From the NCBI GenBank assembly GCA_945860945.1, contig CAMASG010000003.1, forward strand, positions 624-64,623: a stretch of 64,000 bases of DNA. The letters are read 5' to 3'. The DNA comes from Akkermansia muciniphila (GTDB taxonomy: Bacteria > Verrucomicrobiota > Verrucomicrobiia > Limisphaerales > SIAT01). This document shows positions 33,895-45,262 of this stretch, in pieces; position 1 is the first letter of the stretch, and each line of letters starts with the position of its first letter. The position numbers and the translations under genes are program-made. The notes under the pieces are model-generated. The model ran no database searches, was not told where the DNA came from, and saw only the letters and a program-made list of their open reading frames with translations.

Positions 33895-34551
33895 TCACGG
33901 TCGCTTCTTGGCGACGGCGTTGGTTTTCGCTTCACTCATCGGCGCAAACTTCTGCGCGCGCTGGCTGGCTTCGAAAATCTGGTCGGGCAACATCTGCAGC
34001 GAGACCTGTTCGCGCGCGTGGTGCGCGGTCTCGTGTCCCTGCCGGATGGCGAGCGTGAGCCAGAAGTAAGCGTCGGCGAGATCGGTCTTCACACCTTTTC
34101 CCTCGGCGGCGGCGAGGCCGGAGTTGAACTGAGCAACAACGTGTCCCTGCGCAGCGGCGCGGCGGAACCAGCGGACGGCTTCGGCGGCGTCCTGCTTCAC
34201 GCCGTGACCGTCGAGGTGGAGTGTACCGAGATTGATTTGCGCGCTGGCGGAACCTTGCTCGGCAGATTTGCGATACCACGCGGCGGCTTCGGCAAAATCC
34301 TGTTTCACGCCCAACCCTTTCTCGAGCGCGGCCGCGAGGTAGAACTGCGCTTCGGCGTGGTTTCGATCGGCGGCTTTGCGTAACCACTTGGCGGCTTCAG
34401 TGGGATTGGCGTTGCCGTTCGCGGCGCCCAAGTCGAACTGGGCTTGGAGATCGCCCTTCTGCGCGCGTCGCTCGAGTTTTTCCAACTCGGTTTTCGGACT
34501 GCAACCGACGAGGAGCGCGACCGCGACGAGAAGTGGAACAAGTTGTTTCAA
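33895..34551 (-). CDS. Sel1-repeat lipoprotein
   Basis: This is the 3' part of ORF 33895..34965. A TTG at 34551 gives MKQLVPLLVAVALLVGC (lipobox). Sel1 repeats follow (GDLQAQFDLG..., AEAQFYLAAALEKGLGVKQDFAEAAAWYRKSAEQG, ASAQINLGTLHLDGHGVKQDAAEAVRWFRRAAAQG). The upstream part of the long ORF overlaps the next gene in another frame. Confidence 0.7.
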   Translation of the reverse strand: MKQLVPLLVAVALLVGCSPKTELEKLERRAQKGDLQAQFDLGAANGNANPTEAAKWLRKAADRNHAEAQFYLAAALEKGLGVKQDFAEAAAWYRKSAEQGSASAQINLGTLHLDGHGVKQDAAEAVRWFRRAAAQGHVVAQFNSGLAAAEGKGVKTDLADAYFWLTLAIRQGHETAHHAREQVSLQMLPDQIFEASQRAQKFAPMSEAKTNAVAKKRP

Positions 34552-34561
34552 GGCCGAGGAA

Positions 34562-35266
34562 TCACTTCTTCGGCTCGACCCGCTTGGCCGGCGCGTTGGT
34601 CTTCGCCGGTTCGATGACGGGCTTGGAGACGTCCTTTGTGGCGGGGCTTTTGGTCTTATCGTTCTTGGGCGCGTCTTTTTTTGGCGCGTCCTTCTTCTTG
34701 CTCGGCGGCTTGGAAGAGACGGGCGTGAACTCGGAGGAGAGCCGCTGTGCTTCGGTGATTTGCACCGCGGACATGCTATTGGCAAGGATGTCGCGGGCGC
34801 GTTCAGCGGCGGTGTCGCCCGCGCTGGCGGCGAGGTTGAGCCATTTGTAAGCTTCGACCCAATTCTTGTTGCCGAGGCTGGTGTCGCGCAGAACGAGTCC
34901 GAGCTGAGCCTGCGCATCGGCGAGTCCCTGCTCGGCTGCGGCGGTGAGCCACTTCGCAGCGGCACCGGCGTCTTTGCCCACGCCGTCGCCTTTCGCGTAA
35001 AGCTTGCCGAGAGCGGACTGCGCGCGCGCGTTGTTCTGTTCAGCCGATTTGCGGAACCACTTGGCGGCCTCGACGCTGCTCTTCGCGGTACCTTGGCCGC
35101 CGAGATGCATGTTGCCGAGGATGAGCTGGGCGTTGACGTCGCCTTTATCAGCCAGCGATTTGACGGTGCCGAAATCGAGCTCGTCGGCGCGCGCTCCGGA
35201 GGCGGCGAGCGTGGCGATGCAAGTGAAGGCGAGGAGAATCCAACGGCAGGAACGGCGGCTGTTCAT
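34562..35266 (-). CDS. secreted Sel1-repeat protein with a Lys/Pro-rich tail
   Basis: ORF 34562..35302; the likely start is ATG 35266 (MNSRRSCRWILLAFTCIATLAASGARA). It has Sel1 repeats (GDVNAQLILGNMHLGGQGTAKSSVEAAKWFRKSAEQN, ARAQSALGKLYAKGDGVGKDAGAAAKWLTAAAEQG). The tail reads KPPSKKKDAPKKDAPKNDKTK. Confidence 0.75.
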   Translation of the reverse strand: MNSRRSCRWILLAFTCIATLAASGARADELDFGTVKSLADKGDVNAQLILGNMHLGGQGTAKSSVEAAKWFRKSAEQNNARAQSALGKLYAKGDGVGKDAGAAAKWLTAAAEQGLADAQAQLGLVLRDTSLGNKNWVEAYKWLNLAASAGDTAAERARDILANSMSAVQITEAQRLSSEFTPVSSKPPSKKKDAPKKDAPKNDKTKSPATKDVSKPVIEPAKTNAPAKRVEPKK

Positions 35267-35378
35267 GGTGTCAAGATTATGAATCGGCACGGCAAACATC
35301 AAGCCGCATCTGGCGGCAACGAGAGGTCAGACGCGCTGCGACCCGCAGCCGTTACGTTTGGTTTGCCGTGCGCGTGGT

Positions 35379-38300
35379 TCAGGATTCTTTGCTCAAGGCA
35401 CGGCGGCCGAGTGCGACGAGGAACGCGAGCAGTGCCACGTAGAAGGAACCCCAGAGGACGCGGTTGAACACGCCGGGCGTCTCGAGATTGGCGGCGGCGA
35501 AGGTGATGGTCATCGCTTTGCCGGTCTCGGTCTGAAGCGCTTGCGCGAAGCCGAACTGAAGGCCGCGCTGGGGCAGGTTCACGCGGAGCGGCGAGACTTT
35601 GCTGCTCGTGACTTCCTGCGCCTTGTGAACCATCGCGAGCTGTTGCTCGGCGGTTTCGTTGTCATACAACACGAACGGTTTGCCGCTGGCCTTCTCGCGC
35701 GAGAGCTCTTCATCGAGTTGGAGGGATTGCTGGCCCTGCTCAGTGGCGAGGCGCTGGCGGAGGTTGAACGAGTAGGTGTTCTGCGCATCGACCAAGTTGC
35801 GGGCTTGCGCTTTCCGGATGTCTTTCTCGAGCTTCTTCACTTCCTCGTTGTTTTTACCGAGGTCGAGGTCGTTGTTCGCGCGATAGGTTTGGCTGAGAGC
35901 TTTGTTCGCCTCCTCGATGTTTCCTTTCTTGAGGTTCTCTTGGACGAAGTTAATCGATGAGGTGACGTCGGATCGGCGCTTGGCGCGGTTCTCGTCTTCC
36001 ACCTGCGAATAATCGGTCTGCGAGAAGACGCGGACCACTTGCGCGGCTCTCCGAGCCTCGCGGCTCATCGTACCCTCGAACTTCGCGTAATCGTAGGCGG
36101 GCGGCAGGAAGAGATCCCAGCGGGCATTCTTGAGCGGCACATCGAGCGTCGGCGCGGCGAGGGCGACTTTGCCGTTCCGTTCCGGGAACTGCACGCGGCC
36201 GATGAAGGTGATGTCGATCGGGATGGTCGCGCCTTCGCCGGAACGCTCCAGCGGTAGCAGCAGCTTGCCGCCGCGGTTGGTGGGCCGCACTGGTTGACCG
36301 GCGACGAACGCCGACCAGACTTCGGTCTGCTTGTCGGGCAGGGTGAGCTTAAGGAATTGCTTACCGTTGTTGCGCACGTTGAGCGTCATCTGGGTCATCA
36401 TCTGGCCATCCTCGGTGATGACGGAGACGAGGCTCGCGCTATCCACCAACGCTTGCAATACCTCGGCGGGGTCGTGGCTACGGGCGCGCACGGCGAGTTC
36501 GTAACCGGGCCGTAGATAGCGATAGGCGAGCGTGGCGGTATCGGTCGCTACGCCGGCCCATTCGGGGACCTCGCGCGAATCGATGGGGATGAGGTCGGTG
36601 CCGGCCTTGTCTTCCGCGACCTGCAACGGCGCGCGGGCATTGAAGATCAGCATGCCGGTCTCGCGTTCCACCTTCGGATCCACGCCCTGCGCGACGATCG
36701 GCAGCACCTTGAACGCTTCGCCTTTGGTCGCGTCGAAAGGCTGCTCCCACGTGACGGTGATCGTGTAGGTGCCGCGTTTCTTGTTCTGCAATTCCACGCG
36801 CCAGAGGTCACCCTGCTGGTCGCGGCGGCGGATATCCGAGCAGTTGATTTCCACGTTCTTGAAGCCGGCAGGGATGCGGAGCTGGAACTCCTTCGTCGGC
36901 GCGTTCGCGATTTCGTATTTCACGATCGCGCGGCCGCTCACGAGCGTATCCTGCACGGTGAGGACGGTGGCGATCTCGGCGCGCACCCACGAATCAATGC
37001 GCTCGGTGGCGACGCTGAGTTTCCACGCCGGCTGCGCGGTTGGCTCACCTGTGATGAACTTGAAGGCGAGCGTGCCTGCGATCGGCAAGGACATCATCTG
37101 TTGTTTCGATTGCGCTATCGGCGCGGTGTTCTGCGCGATGGGAGCCGCCGGCAACGCGCTCACGGGGATCTCCGTGAGCCCGTCGAAGTTCTCCGTCTTC
37201 ACCTGCACGCCTTCCTCGGCGGAGACGGCGACGAAGCCGGTGAGCTTCTGCACGCCGATCGGGTGCGCGCCAACCGCGCTGACCGACTTCGGCACTTCCT
37301 TGATGAGGAGGGCGAGGTCCACGCGCAACGGATAATGGCCGAGCATGCGCTCGGTGAGCGTAACTTCGACGATGCGGTTCGTCCCCTCGGTTTTCTCAAC
37401 CCACTGCGCCAGGCGATCGCCGATCACGCGCTCGACGCGGTAGCCGGCCGGCAGGAGTTGGCGCAGGGTGAAGACGCCGACGCGCTTGATGGTGTAATCA
37501 ATCTGGCTGCTGGAAAGAAGCTGGTCGGTCGTGATGCGCAGGTGATGATGCGCGACCGCTTCGATCTGGGGCTGAACGGCCTCGACACGGCCGGCGAGTA
37601 CGATGCCCGGCTTCAGGAAACGCCACGCGGTGGTGGCGACGTCCGGCAGCGCGACGGCGCGCGTGAATTCAGAGGTATCCACCTTCTGCAAATCGCTCGT
37701 GGTGTCGGCGACGAAGCTGAGGTCGTCGCTGGTCTTGATGCCGATGAAACCGGTCTCGCGTTTCACATCGAGCGCCTGCGGCACGGCGACCTTCACCACG
37801 GCGGGCGGCACGGCGAGCGGTTGTTCGAGATCGAGAAACACGCGCCACGCGGTCGCGACGCCTTTGGCCAGCTCGACGGTGAGGATGTTCTCGCCCTTCT
37901 CATCCGCGCTGCGCCACGTGCGCACGTGATCGCCTTCCACGCGCATCAACTTCTGACCAACAGGCAGGCGGATGCGGGCGGAACGCAGCTCGCCTTGCGT
38001 GATTTGGTAATCCAGCGTCGCGCGGCTGCGGATGACGCCACCTTCGAAACTCACGAGCACGGCGTTTTGCACGAAGACGGTCGCGGAGGTTTCTTCGGCC
38101 TTCTTCACGCGCGGCGTCCACGCCAACTCGAGATGATCGGCCGCGCCGATTGTTCCATCCACACGCGTCTGCTGCGCGGCCGGCGTGGTCTTGAAAGTGA
38201 CAGCGGTGGGCAGATCCACCACGGCCTCGGGCTCGTTCAGCGTGATGGCGAGCGTGCTCGTGAGCGCGGGCGGAATGGCGAAGCTCAACTGGCGCTTCGC

Positions 38301-41300
38301 GGCATCGCCAGTGAGGCGCGTGTGGAACTTCACTTTCACTTTCGCCGCGCCGGCTTCGGCCAACCAAAGCACGAGGCCGCGACCTTCACGGAGCAACTTC
38401 GCATCCTTGGCCGTGCTGGTAAAACTTTCGACTGCGACGTCGTCGCCGAAGAGCGGGAAACGCTGGCCTGCCTTGAGCGCGGTGAAATCGAAGTCCGCCT
38501 CGACCTCGGCCACTTGCTCGCGCACGGCCGCGGTATAGGTGGCGGTGAGGAGCGTGATCGCGTTCGTGACGCTGCCGACGGCAACACCGCGGTCATCGAA
38601 TAGCTCGAAGCTGAGCTGGCGACCTTCGTGCCAGAGGACTTCCTTCGAGGGCTTTCCGTTGACGTGCCAGAAACGGGCCAGCCCATGCGGTTCGCCGGTG
38701 AGATACGTCATCTCGCGTTCGGGCTTGCCGCTGGCGTGCCACGCGCGGCTCGCGCCGTGGCGTTTGCCGGCGGCGAAAGCGATCTCCTCGCTCTTCTGAC
38801 CGTTGCGGAACCACGTGGCGGTCACGCCGTCCGCGAGGCCGAGTTTGTAACCGGCTTCACGCGCCTTCTGGCCGTTGTCGAACCAGTGCGTCTCGATGCC
38901 TTCGGATTTACCGTCTTTGTAATTCGCCTCAAACCGGCGCTGCTTGTTCTCGAAGAACCCGACGACCTTGCCGGTGTACGACACTTCCTGATTGATCTCG
39001 AACTTGGTGCCGTTGCGATCCTGCAACTGCAACTCGCGGATGACGCGCGGGCCGCCGGGCACTTCGAGCGGCGTCTCGGGCAGCACGATGATTTCAATCG
39101 GTCGAGCCAATGCAGGCAACGCGACTGGCTGCGCGACGGCGGTTTGTACGATGAAGAATCCGAGGGCGAGAACGACCGCGGCGGGGATGACGGGCGTTTC
39201 AGCAGACGGCGGCGCGGTGGGCGGCGACTTCTTACGATTGTGCCAGAGTTTCGTGATGAGCCGCGTGACTTGCCAGAGCACGACCGCGGCGGTGAGCAGC
39301 AGCGGCAGCGCGATGAGTGCGTCGCCGAGCAGACGCTGCGAGAGCAGGAAGTAAGCGATCGAACCGAGCACGAGCGCGAGACCACCCGTGATGCGGAAGG
39401 TATCGCGGTGCACCTGCTGATATTGTTTCCAGAGCAGGAACAGGCCGGCGAGGAACGCGGCGACCTGTGCGAGCGCGCGGAGGATGCTGAACTTTTGCGT
39501 CTCCATCGCGAGCGCTTCGATGCGGAGCGGTTCGCGGTTCACGTTGAGCGCCTTCGTGAAAACGATGCGTTGGCCGCTGCGCGGAATCTCGACGCGAATC
39601 GGCCGGATGCCGGCAGCCATCGCCGCGCCTTCGCCCTTGTCACCACCAGCGACAGAACCCCAACCGGCGCCGCCGCCGCCGCCCGCGCGGCCATCCACAC
39701 CGCGCACCGTGCCCATGCCGCCCTGCGGTTGGCTCGGCTGTTGGTTGCTCGGAAGAACGACGGCGGCGAGCGCACCGCCAGTGACGGAAGTGCCGGGGCC
39801 GCTCATGGGCGGCTGGGAACCTGGTGTTGCCGCCTGAGCCTGAGGCAGCGGCGGCGGTGATTTCTTAGCGGGGGAAACCCGCGAAGCGGTGGCGGAAGAA
39901 GAGGGCTGATCGCTTTCGCGCATGGGCTCCCCTTTTTGTCCGAGTTGCTGTTGCCTGTCGGCGGGCCTTTCGGCTGGTGAATTTGCATCGGGCAGGCGCT
40001 CGAAACGATCCATGCGATCGCCGTTCGCGACTTTGGCTTCGAGGCGCTCACCTTCTCCAGCGGCGGCGTCGTAGAGGTCGAGGCCTGTGGGATTGCTGAC
40101 TTCGCCGCTGGTTCTCGAGGCCGCGTATTTATAGCTGCTGAGCGTGGGCAGAAGCATTCCGGAAAGCACGAGCAAGACGAGTGCGGTGACGGCCACGCGC
40201 GCGGCGGCGCGCCAACCGCGTTGGACGGCGGTGATGATGCCGTACAGAACCACAGCGAGTGCGATGAGAACCGCAGCGAGCGCGATGAACTCGGAGGCGT
40301 GTCGGCGATAGTAGGCGCGGCACTCGTTCCACGCATCGCGCCAGCCGTAGGTGGTGCCGCGAGCGACAATCATATTGCCGTCGAAGGCGCCGAGGCGCTG
40401 GTTGGCGGGGATGTAAAGCTCCCACTCATTGTAGGTGTTGGGCACGTCGTTGGTCGGCGCGGCGAGAGCGACCTTCACGGGGAAGAAACCGGTGATGCCA
40501 CGGCGGTCGAGCGGTGTGGTGTTCTGCGCATAGACGAGATCCACGGCGATGGTCTCGTTGCGGTTCGCGCCGCGCGGCAGCGGCACGAGATACGTGTCGC
40601 CTTCTTTTTCAATCTTGGCCGGCTGGTTGTTCACGTAAGCGCTCCAGAAAACGGCGCCGGGCGGCAACGTGAAACGCTGGAATTGTTTGTCGTTATTTTT
40701 CACCATGAACGACGCCTGCGTGAGCATCTGGCCTTGCTCGGTGAGAACGGTCGTGAGCTGGGTGCGGTCGGCCACGGCGGCGAGCACGGGCAATTCGGTG
40801 AAGCGCGTGACGGCCACCGCGAGGTCGTATTTCGCGCCTTCGTATTGATAGGCGAGAAGCACGGGGCGGGCGATGAGCGCGCGGTCGTTGGCGGAAAGCT
40901 CGGCTTCATCCACGCGCCGGAGGGATTCCATTTTCAAGGGCTTCAGCTCGAGGTTGGCAGCGCTGGTGATGGCCACGGCACCGGCCTCGCGGTCCACGCC
41001 GAGCACGTGCACGCCGCCGACGGGCAGCGTGGCTTTGTGGGGATCGAACTGGGCGTCGTAAGTGATGACGAGCGTGTAACCGCCCCACGCTTTTTCCTGC
41101 AAACTGACGGTCCAATCAGCGCTGATGGTGTTCGTCCCGACAGCAGCGGATTCTTTGCGGCGGATGTTCGGGCCGGTGAACTCGACGTTCTTCCACGCGA
41201 GCGGGACACGCACCTTGAACTCCTGCACACCTTGATTGAGGATGCCGTAGCGGATGGTGGCGCTGCCACCGAGTAGGCCGTCGCCGATGGTGACGAGATT

Positions 41301-42902
41301 GAAAACCTCCGCCGTGACACGCGCGGGAAGCTTCTCCGCGCCGAGTTTGAGCGACCAATCGGGCTGCTCGGCGGTGTACGCGAGCGATTCACCCGCGCGC
41401 AGGCCGACGTTGCTGACGGGCACTTCCCGTGCGCCGATGAGCGCGCCGGTCTTGAGCTGGATGCCCGCGGCGGCAGCGGCGCCGATTTGCGAAGTCTCCT
41501 TCACCGCACCGGTGGCGCGAAGCGCGGTGACGGTGAAGGATTCGGGGAACGTTTTGAGCGCCTGCTCGAGCTGCACTTCAATCTGGCGACGGCCGAGCAC
41601 GCGGCGCGCGAAATTCACGGTGAGCTTACCGCCGACGGCCTTCCAATCCTCGATGCCTTCGCCGGTGACGCTGGCGACGACGAAGTTGGTCTGCGGCGCG
41701 AACTCGAGCGAGTAGATGCCGGCCTTCTCCACGTTGAGCCCGAGCGAATGCGAGACGAGCAGGCGCGATTCCTCGAGGCGCACGGAGGCGCGGTTGGCGA
41801 GATTCACGACGGGGTCGATCTTGCGGAGCTTGAGAGCGAGCGAAAGATTTTGGCGTCCGAAGAATTGCCACGCGGCCACAGCGCCCGCGGCGGCGTTCAT
41901 CTGGCGCAAACCGGTCGCGGTATCGGTCTCCACCAGTACATCCTCGGCGGTGACGGAGAGGGTGCCGTTCTCGCGTTCGGTCTCGAGCGGTTGCGCGGGG
42001 ACGATGGCGGCGGTCGCGCCTTCGATGGCTTGTTCGGTGAAGAGGGTGAGAGCGTAATTTTTCTCAACCGGCTTGATGAAATCGATGGTGAGCGTCTGCC
42101 GACCGTTCTCGGCTTTCACCCGCCAATCGCGGATTTGTTCGCCCTGTAATTTGATGATCGCCTGCGTGGACGGAAGCGCGACGGTGAGGTTCGTCAACTT
42201 GCCTTGCACGATTTCGTAGCGGAGCTGCGTGGTGTATTTCGCGACGCTCGGCGTGACGTGCACGCTCGCGGCGGTCTCGGCGATGAGCAGCGCTTTGCGC
42301 GCTTCCTCGGCCGCTTTGCTCTGCCAACGCAGCGAGACGAGCCGGTCCGCACCGAGAAAACCGCGCACGGTGGATTTATCGGCGGCGGGCTGCGTGGTGC
42401 CGGAGAGAAGCTGCACTTCCATTCCGCCGGCGGCCTTCGCCGTGATGGCCGCGATGGCGGAGGCAGGGCCCGTGAAACTCGCGGAGCGCCACGGCTCGAG
42501 CTTGGAAACCTTCGCGGCCAGTTCGAACTTGGCCTGATAACGGCCCGGCTTGCTGATGACGAGGTGGTATTCCTGGCCGGTGCGGATGAGGCGCAGGCCG
42601 TCGGGGAAGGCGCCCGGCGCGGCGAGCACGGCCACGTTGCCACTGAAAAGCGGCAGCACACGCTCGCGGGCGGCGGTGGACTCGACCTCGATGCTCGTGG
42701 CGAAACGGGCATCGCTCTCGCCGAGCGTCCCTTCGTAGCGCACGGAGTGGATGGTGACGACCTCGGCGGCAGCGGTGGCATTCGTGGCGCCGGCCGGCGC
42801 CGGCTGCGCGTACAATGGCGCGGCGAGAGATAATAACAGGAGCGCGGATGCAGCGAGGAGGGCGCGATGGATGGTTTTGCTGATGAGGTTGGATCGCTTC
42901 AT
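35379..42902 (-). CDS. giant (2507 aa) internally duplicated envelope/membrane protein with MORN-variant repeats; family unknown
   Basis: A single uninterrupted ORF with natural amino-acid composition. It has an N-terminal signal peptide (…LAAPLYA|QP). Two paralogous modules span residues about 40-865 and about 1440-2290. A central cluster of about 6 TM helices and a P/Q/G/S-rich linker separate them. MORN/YwqK-type repeats occupy residues about 1300-1432. It ends with a C-terminal coiled-coil-like charged region and a terminal TM helix. Confidence 0.85.
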   Translation of the reverse strand: MKRSNLISKTIHRALLAASALLLLSLAAPLYAQPAPAGATNATAAAEVVTIHSVRYEGTLGESDARFATSIEVESTAARERVLPLFSGNVAVLAAPGAFPDGLRLIRTGQEYHLVISKPGRYQAKFELAAKVSKLEPWRSASFTGPASAIAAITAKAAGGMEVQLLSGTTQPAADKSTVRGFLGADRLVSLRWQSKAAEEARKALLIAETAASVHVTPSVAKYTTQLRYEIVQGKLTNLTVALPSTQAIIKLQGEQIRDWRVKAENGRQTLTIDFIKPVEKNYALTLFTEQAIEGATAAIVPAQPLETERENGTLSVTAEDVLVETDTATGLRQMNAAAGAVAAWQFFGRQNLSLALKLRKIDPVVNLANRASVRLEESRLLVSHSLGLNVEKAGIYSLEFAPQTNFVVASVTGEGIEDWKAVGGKLTVNFARRVLGRRQIEVQLEQALKTFPESFTVTALRATGAVKETSQIGAAAAAGIQLKTGALIGAREVPVSNVGLRAGESLAYTAEQPDWSLKLGAEKLPARVTAEVFNLVTIGDGLLGGSATIRYGILNQGVQEFKVRVPLAWKNVEFTGPNIRRKESAAVGTNTISADWTVSLQEKAWGGYTLVITYDAQFDPHKATLPVGGVHVLGVDREAGAVAITSAANLELKPLKMESLRRVDEAELSANDRALIARPVLLAYQYEGAKYDLAVAVTRFTELPVLAAVADRTQLTTVLTEQGQMLTQASFMVKNNDKQFQRFTLPPGAVFWSAYVNNQPAKIEKEGDTYLVPLPRGANRNETIAVDLVYAQNTTPLDRRGITGFFPVKVALAAPTNDVPNTYNEWELYIPANQRLGAFDGNMIVARGTTYGWRDAWNECRAYYRRHASEFIALAAVLIALAVVLYGIITAVQRGWRAAARVAVTALVLLVLSGMLLPTLSSYKYAASRTSGEVSNPTGLDLYDAAAGEGERLEAKVANGDRMDRFERLPDANSPAERPADRQQQLGQKGEPMRESDQPSSSATASRVSPAKKSPPPLPQAQAATPGSQPPMSGPGTSVTGGALAAVVLPSNQQPSQPQGGMGTVRGVDGRAGGGGGAGWGSVAGGDKGEGAAMAAGIRPIRVEIPRSGQRIVFTKALNVNREPLRIEALAMETQKFSILRALAQVAAFLAGLFLLWKQYQQVHRDTFRITGGLALVLGSIAYFLLSQRLLGDALIALPLLLTAAVVLWQVTRLITKLWHNRKKSPPTAPPSAETPVIPAAVVLALGFFIVQTAVAQPVALPALARPIEIIVLPETPLEVPGGPRVIRELQLQDRNGTKFEINQEVSYTGKVVGFFENKQRRFEANYKDGKSEGIETHWFDNGQKAREAGYKLGLADGVTATWFRNGQKSEEIAFAAGKRHGASRAWHASGKPEREMTYLTGEPHGLARFWHVNGKPSKEVLWHEGRQLSFELFDDRGVAVGSVTNAITLLTATYTAAVREQVAEVEADFDFTALKAGQRFPLFGDDVAVESFTSTAKDAKLLREGRGLVLWLAEAGAAKVKVKFHTRLTGDAAKRQLSFAIPPALTSTLAITLNEPEAVVDLPTAVTFKTTPAAQQTRVDGTIGAADHLELAWTPRVKKAEETSATVFVQNAVLVSFEGGVIRSRATLDYQITQGELRSARIRLPVGQKLMRVEGDHVRTWRSADEKGENILTVELAKGVATAWRVFLDLEQPLAVPPAVVKVAVPQALDVKRETGFIGIKTSDDLSFVADTTSDLQKVDTSEFTRAVALPDVATTAWRFLKPGIVLAGRVEAVQPQIEAVAHHHLRITTDQLLSSSQIDYTIKRVGVFTLRQLLPAGYRVERVIGDRLAQWVEKTEGTNRIVEVTLTERMLGHYPLRVDLALLIKEVPKSVSAVGAHPIGVQKLTGFVAVSAEEGVQVKTENFDGLTEIPVSALPAAPIAQNTAPIAQSKQQMMSLPIAGTLAFKFITGEPTAQPAWKLSVATERIDSWVRAEIATVLTVQDTLVSGRAIVKYEIANAPTKEFQLRIPAGFKNVEINCSDIRRRDQQGDLWRVELQNKKRGTYTITVTWEQPFDATKGEAFKVLPIVAQGVDPKVERETGMLIFNARAPLQVAEDKAGTDLIPIDSREVPEWAGVATDTATLAYRYLRPGYELAVRARSHDPAEVLQALVDSASLVSVITEDGQMMTQMTLNVRNNGKQFLKLTLPDKQTEVWSAFVAGQPVRPTNRGGKLLLPLERSGEGATIPIDITFIGRVQFPERNGKVALAAPTLDVPLKNARWDLFLPPAYDYAKFEGTMSREARRAAQVVRVFSQTDYSQVEDENRAKRRSDVTSSINFVQENLKKGNIEEANKALSQTYRANNDLDLGKNNEEVKKLEKDIRKAQARNLVDAQNTYSFNLRQRLATEQGQQSLQLDEELSREKASGKPFVLYDNETAEQQLAMVHKAQEVTSSKVSPLRVNLPQRGLQFGFAQALQTETGKAMTITFAAANLETPGVFNRVLWGSFYVALLAFLVALGRRALSKES

Positions 42903-43129
42903 AAAGGGGTTGGGTAAATCAATCCGCGCTTCCGGTCAGCAGGGGCGCGATGGATGGGCTTTTTATCAGTTCAACTTCCGTTTGCCAGTTCAAAGTGGCC
43001 GCGAGAAATCCCTTCCGGCCAAACGTGAGACGGCACGCCGCCCGCGAAAACTCCCACGGATATTTCCGCCGCGCGAGGGAAAGGCTGGATTCTTCGGCGC
43101 GTCCGGCTAAGCTCGATGAATCTGACTTT

Positions 43130-43756
43130 GTGACCGGACTGGATGAGAACGCATTGATTACGCGCTGCCTGCGGGGTGAGGCGGCGGCGTGGGATGAGGT
43201 GTTCGACCGCCATTACTCGGCGACCGGCCGCTTCGTGCTGCAGCTCGCGCCGAGTTTCACGCCCGAGGATGCCGAGGAAGTTTGCCAAGAAGCCTTCCTC
43301 TCCGTCATCAAGCACCTCGCTAATTTCAACCGCCGCAGCCAGCTTCAGACGTGGATCTTCCGCATCGCTGCAAACAAAGCGCGCGATTACCGTTCCAAAC
43401 AATCCGCCGAGAAACGCGGCGGTGGCCAGACGCTACTCTCGCTCCATCCTGAGCCGGGCGAAGACACGCCAGCCATCGACCCCGCTAGCCCGCTCCCCTC
43501 GCCGGATGTCGCGCTGCTCCGCGCCGAGCAGTGGAAATTCGTCGGGCAGGCGCTCGAGGAATTGGGCGGTCCGTGTCAGGAAATTCTCGAGCTCCGCTAC
43601 TTCGCCGACCTTGATTACAAAGAGATCAGCGTCGCGCTCGATTTGAACGAGAAGACAGTCAGTTCGCGCCTCAGCAAATGCCGCGACAAATTCGAGGCCG
43701 CGCTGCGCCGCGTTTTTTTGCGGGAGAAAATCGACGGTTTGCCGTCCAACCGATAG
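43130..43756 (+). CDS. ECF-type RNA polymerase sigma-70 family factor
   Basis: ORF 42950..43756. The first 60 codons look non-coding, so I prefer GTG 43130. Region 2 reads EAFLSVIKHLANFNRRSQLQTWIFRIAANKARDY. Region 4 reads ILELRYFADLDYKEISVALDLNEKTVSSRLSKCRDKF. Confidence 0.8.
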   Translation: MTGLDENALITRCLRGEAAAWDEVFDRHYSATGRFVLQLAPSFTPEDAEEVCQEAFLSVIKHLANFNRRSQLQTWIFRIAANKARDYRSKQSAEKRGGGQTLLSLHPEPGEDTPAIDPASPLPSPDVALLRAEQWKFVGQALEELGGPCQEILELRYFADLDYKEISVALDLNEKTVSSRLSKCRDKFEAALRRVFLREKIDGLPSNR

Positions 43757-43762
43757 CTGGAG

Positions 43763-45262
43763 ATGACTAACGAACCTCAAAATCAGGGTGAACAGTGGCT
43801 CAAAGCCTACGCGCAACAGCGCCGAGCCGAGGCTGCGCAGAGCAAGCCCGAGCTGCATCCCGCCACGCGCCGCCTGCTGCAGTCCGAAGTTGCGCGCACC
43901 CACCTTGCGAAGGACGCCGCCTTCGCCACTTCCACCGCGAGCGCCGCGGTGCCAATGGAGAGCGGCGGGTTGTTTGGTCGATGGGCATTCAACGCGCTTG
44001 CGCTGGCTGCGGTGGGGGTTGTCGCCGCCGTGCTCGGTGTCATTATCAGTGACGCGCCGCGCACCAAGCCTGCCCAGTTTGCTGGCACACCGAAGCCTGT
44101 TGGTGAGATTTTAAAATTGGAGAAATCTTCGGAAACCGAGAGCGTTCTCACGTGGACTATTCCGACGCGGAAAGCGGCCGGTGAATCCACACTCGCCAAC
44201 ACCGTCGCGACTGCGACACCAGCGGCTAACGCGCCGATCGCTCCGACTGCGCCGCCGAAACTGGATGGCGTGGCCTCCGCGGGAGCGGGCGGTGGCGCCG
44301 CGTCCAGTTTGGCAAAAGCGTCCGCGCAGCCAACCGAGTCCGCATCTGCCCCGGCGCCGGCCGACAGCAGTTCCACCAGTAATCCGAAGGTGCGTCTGAC
44401 GAGTCGCGCCGCTATGCGCAGCGCGACCGGCGAACCGCTCGCGACTGCTTCGGGTAAATTGGATAAAGCACCGTCGGCCGTTGCGACTTCGGTGGCCGTC
44501 AAAGAAAAAGAAAGCGCGACGAAGGCGGACGCACTCATTGAGCCGAACAAAAATTTGATGGCCGCGAAGAAAGCCGCTGCGCTGGGCGGATCGATTACGC
44601 CGGTTGCGCCGGCAGCGTCCAGTCCGGTTCAGGCGGGTCTTGTCGCGGGCCTCGCGGAGTCGAAACAGAAGTTGGGGGAGGCGAACGCAGAGGGGCAGGC
44701 GATGTCGCGCTTGCAACAGAATTTCTCGCAGTCAGCCCCGCGGGATCAGGCTTATCGGCGCAACCTGAACGCGCCGGGCGAGCCGCGTGTGCTAGTGAAT
44801 TTTCAACTCGAGCGCGAAGGTAATGTGGTGCGCGTAGTGGATGGAGATGGCTCGATCTATCTCGGCAACGTGGCTGGTGAGGTGGGGCGCAAGCTCGCGC
44901 CCGACACTCGGCGCAAAGATGTTCAGAATGTGCCGGCCAAACGCGAGGAGTTGGATCGCGCGTTGCAGTTGGACCAAGAGCAGGCCAAGTCGTTGAACGA
45001 CGGGTTCAATTTCCAAGTCGTCGGAACGAACCGCAGCCTGCGCCAGCGCGTGGTGTTCGAGGGGAATTATCAGAATTATCAAACCCAGGGGCTGGAGCTG
45101 AAAGGCGCGGCGTTCAAGGACACGACGAATCAGTTGTCGCGTTCAAACAAAGATGCCAAGCAGCAATCGCAGCAATCGCCTGTGGGCGCGCCGCGAGTGC
45201 AGGGGCGTGCGGTGATTGGCGGCAATCGCATCGAGGTGGACGCCGTGCCGGTCAGCAAGTAA
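43763..45262 (+). CDS. single-pass membrane protein in anti-sigma position (non-zinc type), with a large extracytoplasmic region
   Basis: 499 aa starting 7 nt after the sigma stop. A short N-terminal cytoplasmic segment is followed by one TM helix (WAFNALALAAVGVVAAVLGVIIS). An Ala/Ser/Pro-rich stretch of about 250 aa comes next. A structured C-terminal part follows (VLVNFQLEREGNVVRVVDGDGSIYLGNV...FNFQVVGTN...VQGRAVIGGNRIEVDAVPVSK). There is no HxxxCxxC motif. Confidence 0.6.
   Translation: MTNEPQNQGEQWLKAYAQQRRAEAAQSKPELHPATRRLLQSEVARTHLAKDAAFATSTASAAVPMESGGLFGRWAFNALALAAVGVVAAVLGVIISDAPRTKPAQFAGTPKPVGEILKLEKSSETESVLTWTIPTRKAAGESTLANTVATATPAANAPIAPTAPPKLDGVASAGAGGGAASSLAKASAQPTESASAPAPADSSSTSNPKVRLTSRAAMRSATGEPLATASGKLDKAPSAVATSVAVKEKESATKADALIEPNKNLMAAKKAAALGGSITPVAPAASSPVQAGLVAGLAESKQKLGEANAEGQAMSRLQQNFSQSAPRDQAYRRNLNAPGEPRVLVNFQLEREGNVVRVVDGDGSIYLGNVAGEVGRKLAPDTRRKDVQNVPAKREELDRALQLDQEQAKSLNDGFNFQVVGTNRSLRQRVVFEGNYQNYQTQGLELKGAAFKDTTNQLSRSNKDAKQQSQQSPVGAPRVQGRAVIGGNRIEVDAVPVSK

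Follow-up and report, generated by a model that had tools for sequence, protein, structure and literature searches.

A predicted internal signal peptide at the joint of two duplicated units in a giant protein family of Verrucomicrobiota

Results

Anatomy of the giant protein

We analysed a 64,000-nucleotide stretch (the window) of contig CAMASG010000003.1, which belongs to an assembly labelled Akkermansia muciniphila (GCA_945860945.1; order Limisphaerales, phylum Verrucomicrobiota in GTDB). Its minus strand holds an open reading frame (ORF) at 35379..42902 (-) that encodes a giant protein of 2507 amino acids (aa), in which two long modules, A and B, are separated by a hinge. The subject of this study is this hinge (38607..40298, residues about 869-1432; the codon of residue n begins at nucleotide 42902-3(n-1)), and above all a hydrophobic segment directly before module B that probably serves as an internal signal peptide. 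The nearest named relative of the giant protein, with 79% identity, is found in Pedosphaera sp. Baikal-deep-G214, and further relatives come from metagenome-assembled genomes (MAGs) of Limisphaerales and Verrucomicrobiota.

A first-pass annotation, produced by a model from the letters of the DNA, had divided the hinge into two transmembrane (TM) helices at residues about 872-921, a low-complexity segment, three further helices at residues about 1140-1213, a hydrophobic segment V1238-IPAAVVLALGFFIVQTAVA|QP that echoes the N-terminal ...LAAPLYA|QP, and a run of MORN repeats. This anatomy was borne out by our analysis, and the nucleotide coordinates of the low-complexity segment and of the hydrophobic segment (39129-39191) reproduced exactly (Table 1). 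Hydropathy placed the N-terminal signal peptide at residues 10-33 (LYA|QP), TM1 at 867-897, TM2 at 898-924 and a signal-peptide-like segment at 1233-1262 (AVA|QP), together with TM3, TM4, TM5 and the C-terminal anchor at the residues given in the table. An AlphaFold2 model that drew on six orthologues and covered residues 860-1450 contained five hinge helices (861-895, 897-922, 1135-1162, 1168-1188 and 1192-1225) and a short helix of 11 residues at 1242-1252, with a predicted local distance difference test score (pLDDT) below 50 over residues 917-1136 and 1225-1300.

An ancient fusion kept in every orthologue examined

At least 16 genomes, from different families of the same order, encode the two modules together in a single open frame of about 2300-2700 aa. 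A phmmer search against 1.8 billion cluster representatives returned 4151 relatives; among the best 150 of these matches, nearly all complete members measured 2070-2690 aa and contained two matched stretches. The giant proteins thus form a large family, found mainly in Verrucomicrobiota, that has no Pfam model. The two-module fusion was kept in every orthologue of the three sets that we examined; these comprised 17 full ORFs taken from genomes of the same order, 122 distinct members of the family and 34 named Verrucomicrobiota species representatives. Candidates for naturally split genes were rejected, as the short homologues that we checked were fragments or assembly artefacts: two begin in the middle of the hinge (P0021, P0032), one comes from a frameshift-ridden nanopore contig (P0208) and one sits at a contig edge (P0200).

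A signal-peptide-type segment before module B

A hydrophobic segment stands immediately before module B in 17/17 full orthologous ORFs, and no orthologue without such a segment was found among those examined. The first-pass annotation had considered that orthologues might show a conserved fusion devoid of any signal-peptide-like segment; the segment was present in all that we examined. In nearly all of the 122 members and 34 species representatives, the end of the segment is a small-x-small c-region, which in the latter is mostly of the AxA type.

For the 122 distinct hinges, we compared the internal segment with control segments from the same proteins. An AxA ending occurred in 57% of the internal segments and in 48% of the true N-terminal signal peptides, compared to 27% of the other hinge TM segments and 22% of the C-terminal anchors. 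A lipobox-like ending (..[GAS]C) was found in 18% of the internal segments (22/122), and in 7%, 3% and 1% of the N-terminal signal peptides, other hinge TM segments and C-terminal anchors, respectively; the overall cysteine frequency is 0.4%. All 22 lipobox members are distant relatives, in which motifs such as LLPSGC, MLPLGC or MLLSGC appear right where module B starts. This recurrence is the strongest argument in the present data: because a lipobox would be purposeless in a plain TM helix, we read the internal segment as a recognised signal peptide.

In the window, the c-region reads AAVVLALGFFIV-QTAVA|QP, with small residues at -3 and -1 and a residue other than proline at +1, as in substrates of the Sec pathway and signal peptidase I. 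The segment contains no cysteine and hence no lipobox, and it starts at residue 1238 instead of at the N-terminus, where signal peptides of this type are located. A basic NRKK motif lies 17 residues upstream of the h-region, with a proline-rich spacer in between; in distant members, RR or KK directly abut the h-region. Between TM5 and the h-region of the window protein there is no in-frame ATG, GTG or TTG, so that unit B (the internal segment and all that follows it) is not translatable on its own with the internal signal. Across the family, no conserved methionine at the hinge could serve as the start of a separate unit B, and independent translation of unit B was therefore ruled out. Of the relatives searched, among them the two genomes of the same genus, 15/15 had a gene for signal peptidase I.

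Two duplicated units

Self-BLAST aligned module A (residues 49-844) with module B (residues 1449-2279) at 28.6% identity (E 3e-81). The AlphaFold2 model of module A is all-beta (pLDDT 87), and Foldseek returned generic matches with low TM-scores, including ribophorin I/OST1, integrin alpha legs and alpha-2-macroglobulin (A2M) domains. As the fold is a generic string of beta-sandwiches with low TM-scores, no function can be read from it; the modelled beta-sandwich arrays may hint at a periplasmic scaffold.

The duplication extends to the ends of both units. A profile of the last 85 residues of the 122 family members, which comprise a tail cassette (P-[IL]-R-V-x-[IL]-P-x-x-G) and the C-terminal anchor, also matched after module A, at residues about 1093-1157 (28.3 bits, independent E-value 8e-9). 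Unit A thus likewise ends in a tail, a TM anchor and a proline-rich cytoplasmic tail, and both halves share one order of parts: signal peptide, beta-sandwich body of ~800 aa, linker, tail cassette and TM anchor. Distant single-unit relatives of 1128-1171 aa (P0237, P0238, P0240) are encoded as separate genes; in these proteins, an N-terminal signal peptide is followed by one module, 3-4 TM helices and a C-terminal tail that is basic and proline-rich. The ending of unit A, i.e. TM3-5 followed by KLWHNRKKSPPTAPPSAETP, matches the C-terminus of these single-unit relatives. The spacer at 1218-1237 would accordingly be the former C-terminal tail of unit A, which now acts as n-region of the internal signal peptide, and the old gene boundary would lie at about residue 1237. 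The duplicated tail cassette and the existence of single-unit relatives as genes of their own support the earlier proposal that module B was once a separately exported protein. We interpret the hinge as the place where two paralogous envelope units, both exported by Sec, were fused in frame long ago, a joint that has been conserved since.

In two distant lineages (L081:1851-12631, L082:6696-18211), a single-module member of 1128 or 1171 aa is encoded directly upstream of a two-module giant gene, in a 1+2 module operon; the internal segments of these giants end in …CLAPGHARA|EE and …VAATAFA|EE.

Pseudopilin ancestry of TM2 and the linker

The linker at 922-1098 consists to 44% of P, Q, G and S, compared to 23% in the whole protein, and to 15% of hydrophobic residues, compared to 31%. 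Most close orthologues carry a folded domain of ~110 aa at the position of this linker, with the consensus RRG[WF]xG-(hydrophobic helix)-MLLPALSKAKxKAQRI..NLKQIGLA...LLADGSV. Pfam DUF1559 (PF07596) was matched by 13/22 orthologue segments at E <= 0.01 (best E 3e-10), and the one segment that was scored individually reached 32.8 bits at a cut-off of 23.3. In NCBIfam, the orthologue segments gave weak GspG and H-X9-DG matches, and their profile matched the pseudopilin GspG (5wda, E 4e-8), geopilins and several PilA/PilE pilins. The RRG of this family profile aligns with the prepilin site RKG|F of geopilin and GspG, and several orthologues bear the names 'pseudopilin PulG' or 'H-X9-DG protein' at the Joint Genome Institute (JGI).

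The full pilin-like domain is kept in 24/122 hinges and in 27/34 named species representatives. In about 17 further hinges, the window among them, only the leader-like RGW and the helix are left. The iterated pilin-like profile matched window residues about 886-935 (R895-G896-W897, TM2 and L917-LPTLSS) with 44.7 bits (E 6e-14), and RG[WF] occurs in only 30/122 hinges, including those of the pilin-helix clade. The window combines a basic leader with a hydrophobic helix (QRG|W-RAAARVAVTALVLLVLSGMLLP), as class III signal peptides do. Its positions +1 to +6 read W-R-A-A-A-R and thus lack the glutamate at +5, which we found in few relatives (e.g. P0161, P0044). No Pfam or NCBIfam model, including those for N-terminal methylation and pseudopilins, matched window residues 895-1101, and the DUF1559/H-X9-DG head (NLKQIG, ...ADGSV) is absent from the window, where the low-complexity linker takes its place. 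A poly-glycine run in this linker is kept within the window's genus.

TM2 and the linker are hence the remains of a captured DUF1559 (GspG-like) pseudopilin, which the first reading of this locus had overlooked. TM1 would put the leader of the captured pseudopilin in the cytoplasm, as in a real prepilin, and the head domain has decayed in the window's genus to a fast-evolving linker rich in G, S, P and Q.

A MORN insert in one sub-clade

The MORN (YwqK-type) repeats that had been noticed after the hydrophobic segment were correctly identified. MORN_2 (PF07661) scored 29.4 bits in the whole protein, just below its cut-off of 29.6, and 47.2 bits (E 1e-12) in the isolated stretch at window positions 38550-39200. 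AlphaFold2 predicts beta-hairpins at residues 1311-1435 (pLDDT 76-94), and Foldseek matched these to SET7/9, TbMORN1, TgMORN1, radial-spoke MORN proteins and junctophilin-2 (E from 5e-6, probability 1.00). Some orthologues carry a precomputed PF07661 match. The block and its lead-in (PGGPRVIRELQLQDRNGT...) are limited to a sub-clade that comprises the window protein and six relatives (P0002, P0153-P0156, P0051). In the other orthologues, which have no MORN block, module B begins 0-30 residues past the internal signal peptide; the block has thus been inserted, in this sub-clade only, where the mature N-terminus of unit B is predicted.

Gene neighbourhood and family variation

A divergent ECF (extracytoplasmic function) sigma factor gene and an ORF for a 499-aa membrane protein without Pfam match face the giant gene (window 42950-45262, +). 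Upstream of orthologous giant genes, tblastn detected the sigma factor in 10/49 and the 499-aa protein in 7/49 related loci. On the other side of the gene, two overlapping ORFs in different frames (window 33895-35302, -; 356 aa and 246 aa) both match Sel1 repeats; a same-genus relative (L032) is the only one to conserve these ORFs downstream of the giant gene.

Many orthologues (P0005, P0006, P0013, P0161, L018, L020 and others) contain an extra N-terminal domain of ~220 aa (QTLINVDFG...TNDFWN) before module A. This domain is absent from the window protein, and in one orthologue it matches Pfam Laminin_G_3. In the distant members L021-L031, module positions about 170-350 are instead present in a third, partial copy. 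Five contigs with a Verrucomicrobiota-type gene of about 52-56% identity are labelled as Haliangiales, Bifidobacteriaceae/Bifidobacterium or Akkermansia muciniphila MAGs (L044, L045, L049, L052, L076) and are probably mislabelled or contaminated bins.

At the DNA level, the only tandem repeats were a CCG run of 6.7 copies, which encodes the poly-glycine stretch, and a 21-nucleotide duplication (2 copies, 90% match) in the coding sequence of TM1 (window 40246-40288, …IALAAVLIALAVV…). No Rfam family matched.

Table 1. Segments of the giant protein, with window coordinates and the evidence for each
Feature	Position	Strand	Evidence
N-terminal type I signal peptide of unit A, residues 1-33, ...LAAPLYA|QP	42804..42902	-	translation, hydropathy; AxA-type N-termini in all family members
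Module A body, residues 49-844, beta-sandwich string	40371..42758	-	self-BLAST, AlphaFold2, Foldseek
TM1, residues 872-893, predicted periplasm to cytoplasm	40224..40289	-	hydropathy 2.94; AlphaFold2 helix 861-895
Short loop Q894-R-G-W-R-A-A-A-R902, predicted cytoplasmic, aligning with prepilin leader/cleavage motif RKG|F	40197..40223	-	family profile
TM2, residues 903-921, ...SGMLLPTLSS, pseudopilin-type N-terminal helix, predicted cytoplasm to periplasm	40140..40196	-	pilin-like profile, orthologue alignment
177-aa disordered linker, residues 922-1098, G/A/S/P/Q-rich	39609..40139	-	composition, pLDDT < 50, alignment
Tail cassette A, residues 1099-1137, IRPIRVEIPRSGQRIVFTKALNV...	39492..39608	-	B-tail profile; strong conservation in orthologues
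TM3 1138-1158, TM4 1169-1187, TM5 1190-1217	39252..39491	-	hydropathy; AlphaFold2 helices
Basic and proline-rich spacer, predicted cytoplasmic, residues 1218-1237, KLWHNRKKSPPTAPPSAETP	39192..39251	-	sequence
Predicted internal signal peptide, residues 1238-1258, VIPAAVVLALGFFIVQTAVA|QP	39129..39191	-	sequence, hydropathy, orthologue conservation
MORN_2 (YwqK-type) domain and conserved N-terminal lead-in, residues about 1283-1440, 5-6 repeats	38583..39056	-	PF07661, AlphaFold2, Foldseek
Module B body, residues 1449-2279	36066..38558	-	self-BLAST, module HMM (hidden Markov model)
Charged coiled-coil-like linker 2290-2440, tail cassette B 2441-2477, C-terminal TM anchor 2478-2500	35403..36035	-	sequence, hydropathy, tail profile

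Discussion

A model for the export of both units

Counts of lysine and arginine (3 in the QRGWRAAAR loop, 3 in the TM3-TM4 loop, 5 in the stretch after TM5 and 3 in the C-terminal tail) agree with the positive-inside rule if both modules are periplasmic. With the topology thus derived from hydropathy and the positive-inside rule, the internal segment would at least have to restart translocation. The N-terminal signal peptide would export module A, and TM1 would bring the chain back to the cytoplasm, where, past the basic R895-G896-W897 loop, the pseudopilin-type TM2 would lead it out again. The linker and tail cassette A would then be periplasmic, and TM3, TM4 and TM5 would finish in the cytoplasm with the basic, proline-rich spacer. 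At this point, residues 1238-1258 would act as a signal peptide inside the chain and set Sec translocation going again for the 1250-aa unit B, with signal peptidase I most likely cleaving after A1258 (AVA|QP). The MORN block, module B, the coiled coil and tail cassette B would come to lie outside, and the last TM helix would lead back in. Cleavage would yield two inner-membrane-anchored periplasmic proteins at a ratio of 1:1 from one gene, with the MORN_2 block near the new N-terminus of unit B.

That the segment is a functional internal signal peptide, which restarts export and is probably cut by signal peptidase I after A1258, is the interpretation that we favour and consider reasonably probable. 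Several points weigh against it. The 122 sequences are mutually related, so that the Fisher p-values for the enrichment of AxA (2e-10) and of the lipobox (6e-9) overstate independence and are indicative only. The AxA rule is weak in alanine-rich sequence, and 27% of the control TM segments pass it, too; the internal segments have a median length of 17 aa and the controls of 18 aa, which hardly differs. The gap of 17 aa between the basic residues and the h-region is atypical for the n-region of a signal peptide. Signal peptidase I (TIGR02227, PF10502) was not detected in the window's own assembly, which is 94% complete and fragmented, and this absence is probably an assembly gap. Cleavage itself is deduced from sequence logic and conservation.

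The main alternative is that the segment at 1238-1258 is an uncleaved sixth helix of the hinge, which functions as a start-transfer or signal-anchor sequence only and leaves a single polytopic chain of 2507 aa in which the hinge tethers the two modules. The membrane must be crossed an even number of times whether the segment is cut or not, the uncharged stretch I1239-A1258 has, with about 20 aa, a bilayer-spanning length, the segment lengths resemble those of other hinge TM segments, and AxA occurs by chance in a quarter or so of the latter (27%). A plain TM helix would, however, give no role to the lipobox that 22/122 members show at the start of module B, nor would it be expected to share the AxA enrichment of true N-terminal signal peptides, and AlphaFold2 models just 11 helical residues here. 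We therefore regard an uncleaved helix as possible and, on balance, rather unlikely.

A more elaborate alternative builds on the pilin ancestry of the hinge and assumes three-way processing: prepilin peptidase would cut at R895-G896|W897 on the cytoplasmic face and signal peptidase I at A1258|Q1259, with signal peptidase II plus lipidation replacing the latter in lipobox homologues. This would produce unit A held by a single TM anchor (TM1), a pilin-derived membrane adaptor (linker, tail cassette A and TM3-5) and unit B. The RRG motif does align with the RKG|F prepilin site, its glycine is nearly invariant within the pilin-bearing clade, some members retain I-E-L-L-V-V-I-A-I or a glutamate at +5, and the window's genome encodes a prepilin peptidase (Peptidase_A24). 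However, the window and most members lack this glutamate, the window's own sequence matches neither N_methyl nor TIGR02532, and no known prepilin leader resembles this site, which has about 900 residues and a TM helix in front of it. We consider a second cut improbable.

The first-pass view of the AxA-QP segment as a decaying, functionless relic of a separate protein's signal peptide finds support in the duplicated unit architecture and the single-unit relatives, both of which point to an ancestor of unit B that was exported alone, and is nevertheless hardly tenable: the fusion is ancient and family-wide, yet every member seen retains an n-h-c organisation in a sequence that is not alignable and whose c-region type even changes between AxA and lipobox, and module B would stay cytoplasmic without the segment. 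The persistence of fusion and segment in all orthologues, together with an AxA and lipobox enrichment like that of N-terminal signal peptides, therefore speaks for selection for function and not for decay.

Comparison with known systems

The hinge domains of the orthologues share the RRG motif, the helix and the head motifs with DUF1559/H-X9-DG proteins of Planctomycetota and Verrucomicrobiota (PF07596, TIGR04294) and with GspG (TIGR01710, 5wda). In contrast to these, the domain of the giant proteins is internal, behind a TM helix, instead of N-terminal, and mostly lacks Glu5; the window keeps only the RGW loop and the helix, and a disordered linker replaces the head. The family illustrates how the folded head domain of a pilin decays into a disordered linker. 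As in MORN_2/YwqK-type proteins (PF07661), the window protein has 5-6 tandem beta-hairpin repeats with a fold like that of solved MORN proteins. Unlike the small stand-alone MORN_2 proteins, these repeats form a putatively periplasmic insert between the internal signal peptide and a 1000-aa beta-sandwich module.

We describe here a large, unannotated family with a conserved internal signal-peptide-type segment. This segment changes between type I and the lipoprotein type, and one clade has an embedded prepilin-like module upstream of it. Should cleavage be confirmed, it would show that bacteria use polyproteins processed by signal peptidase to supply paired envelope proteins at a fixed ratio of 1:1, and that internal lipoboxes are substrates of Lgt and Lsp. 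Both annotators and predictors of signal peptides would then have to search past N-termini.

Cleaved internal signal peptides are textbook knowledge for viral polyproteins, such as those of flaviviruses, which are processed by host signal peptidase. The shared logic consists of alternating stop-transfer and signal segments and of luminal cuts by signal peptidase. The giant protein, in contrast, is made by bacterial cells, has only one or possibly two candidate sites and is evolutionarily unrelated to the viral polyproteins. In bacteria, cleaved internal signal peptides are to our knowledge very rare, with the cytochrome b/c1 precursor FbcH of Bradyrhizobium japonicum as the classic case. FbcH gives rise to two membrane proteins from one gene: an internal signal peptide, located behind the final TM helix of the first protein, directs the export of the second, and signal peptidase cleaves between them, which Thony-Meyer et al. 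reportedly demonstrated by experiment in 1989 and 1991. The two families are unrelated, and the halves of FbcH are not paralogues; the cleavage of the giant protein is predicted, and some of its family members have an internal lipobox. The internal signal peptide of the giant family may thus be a variant of the rare FbcH-type principle, realised in a large uncharacterised protein family.

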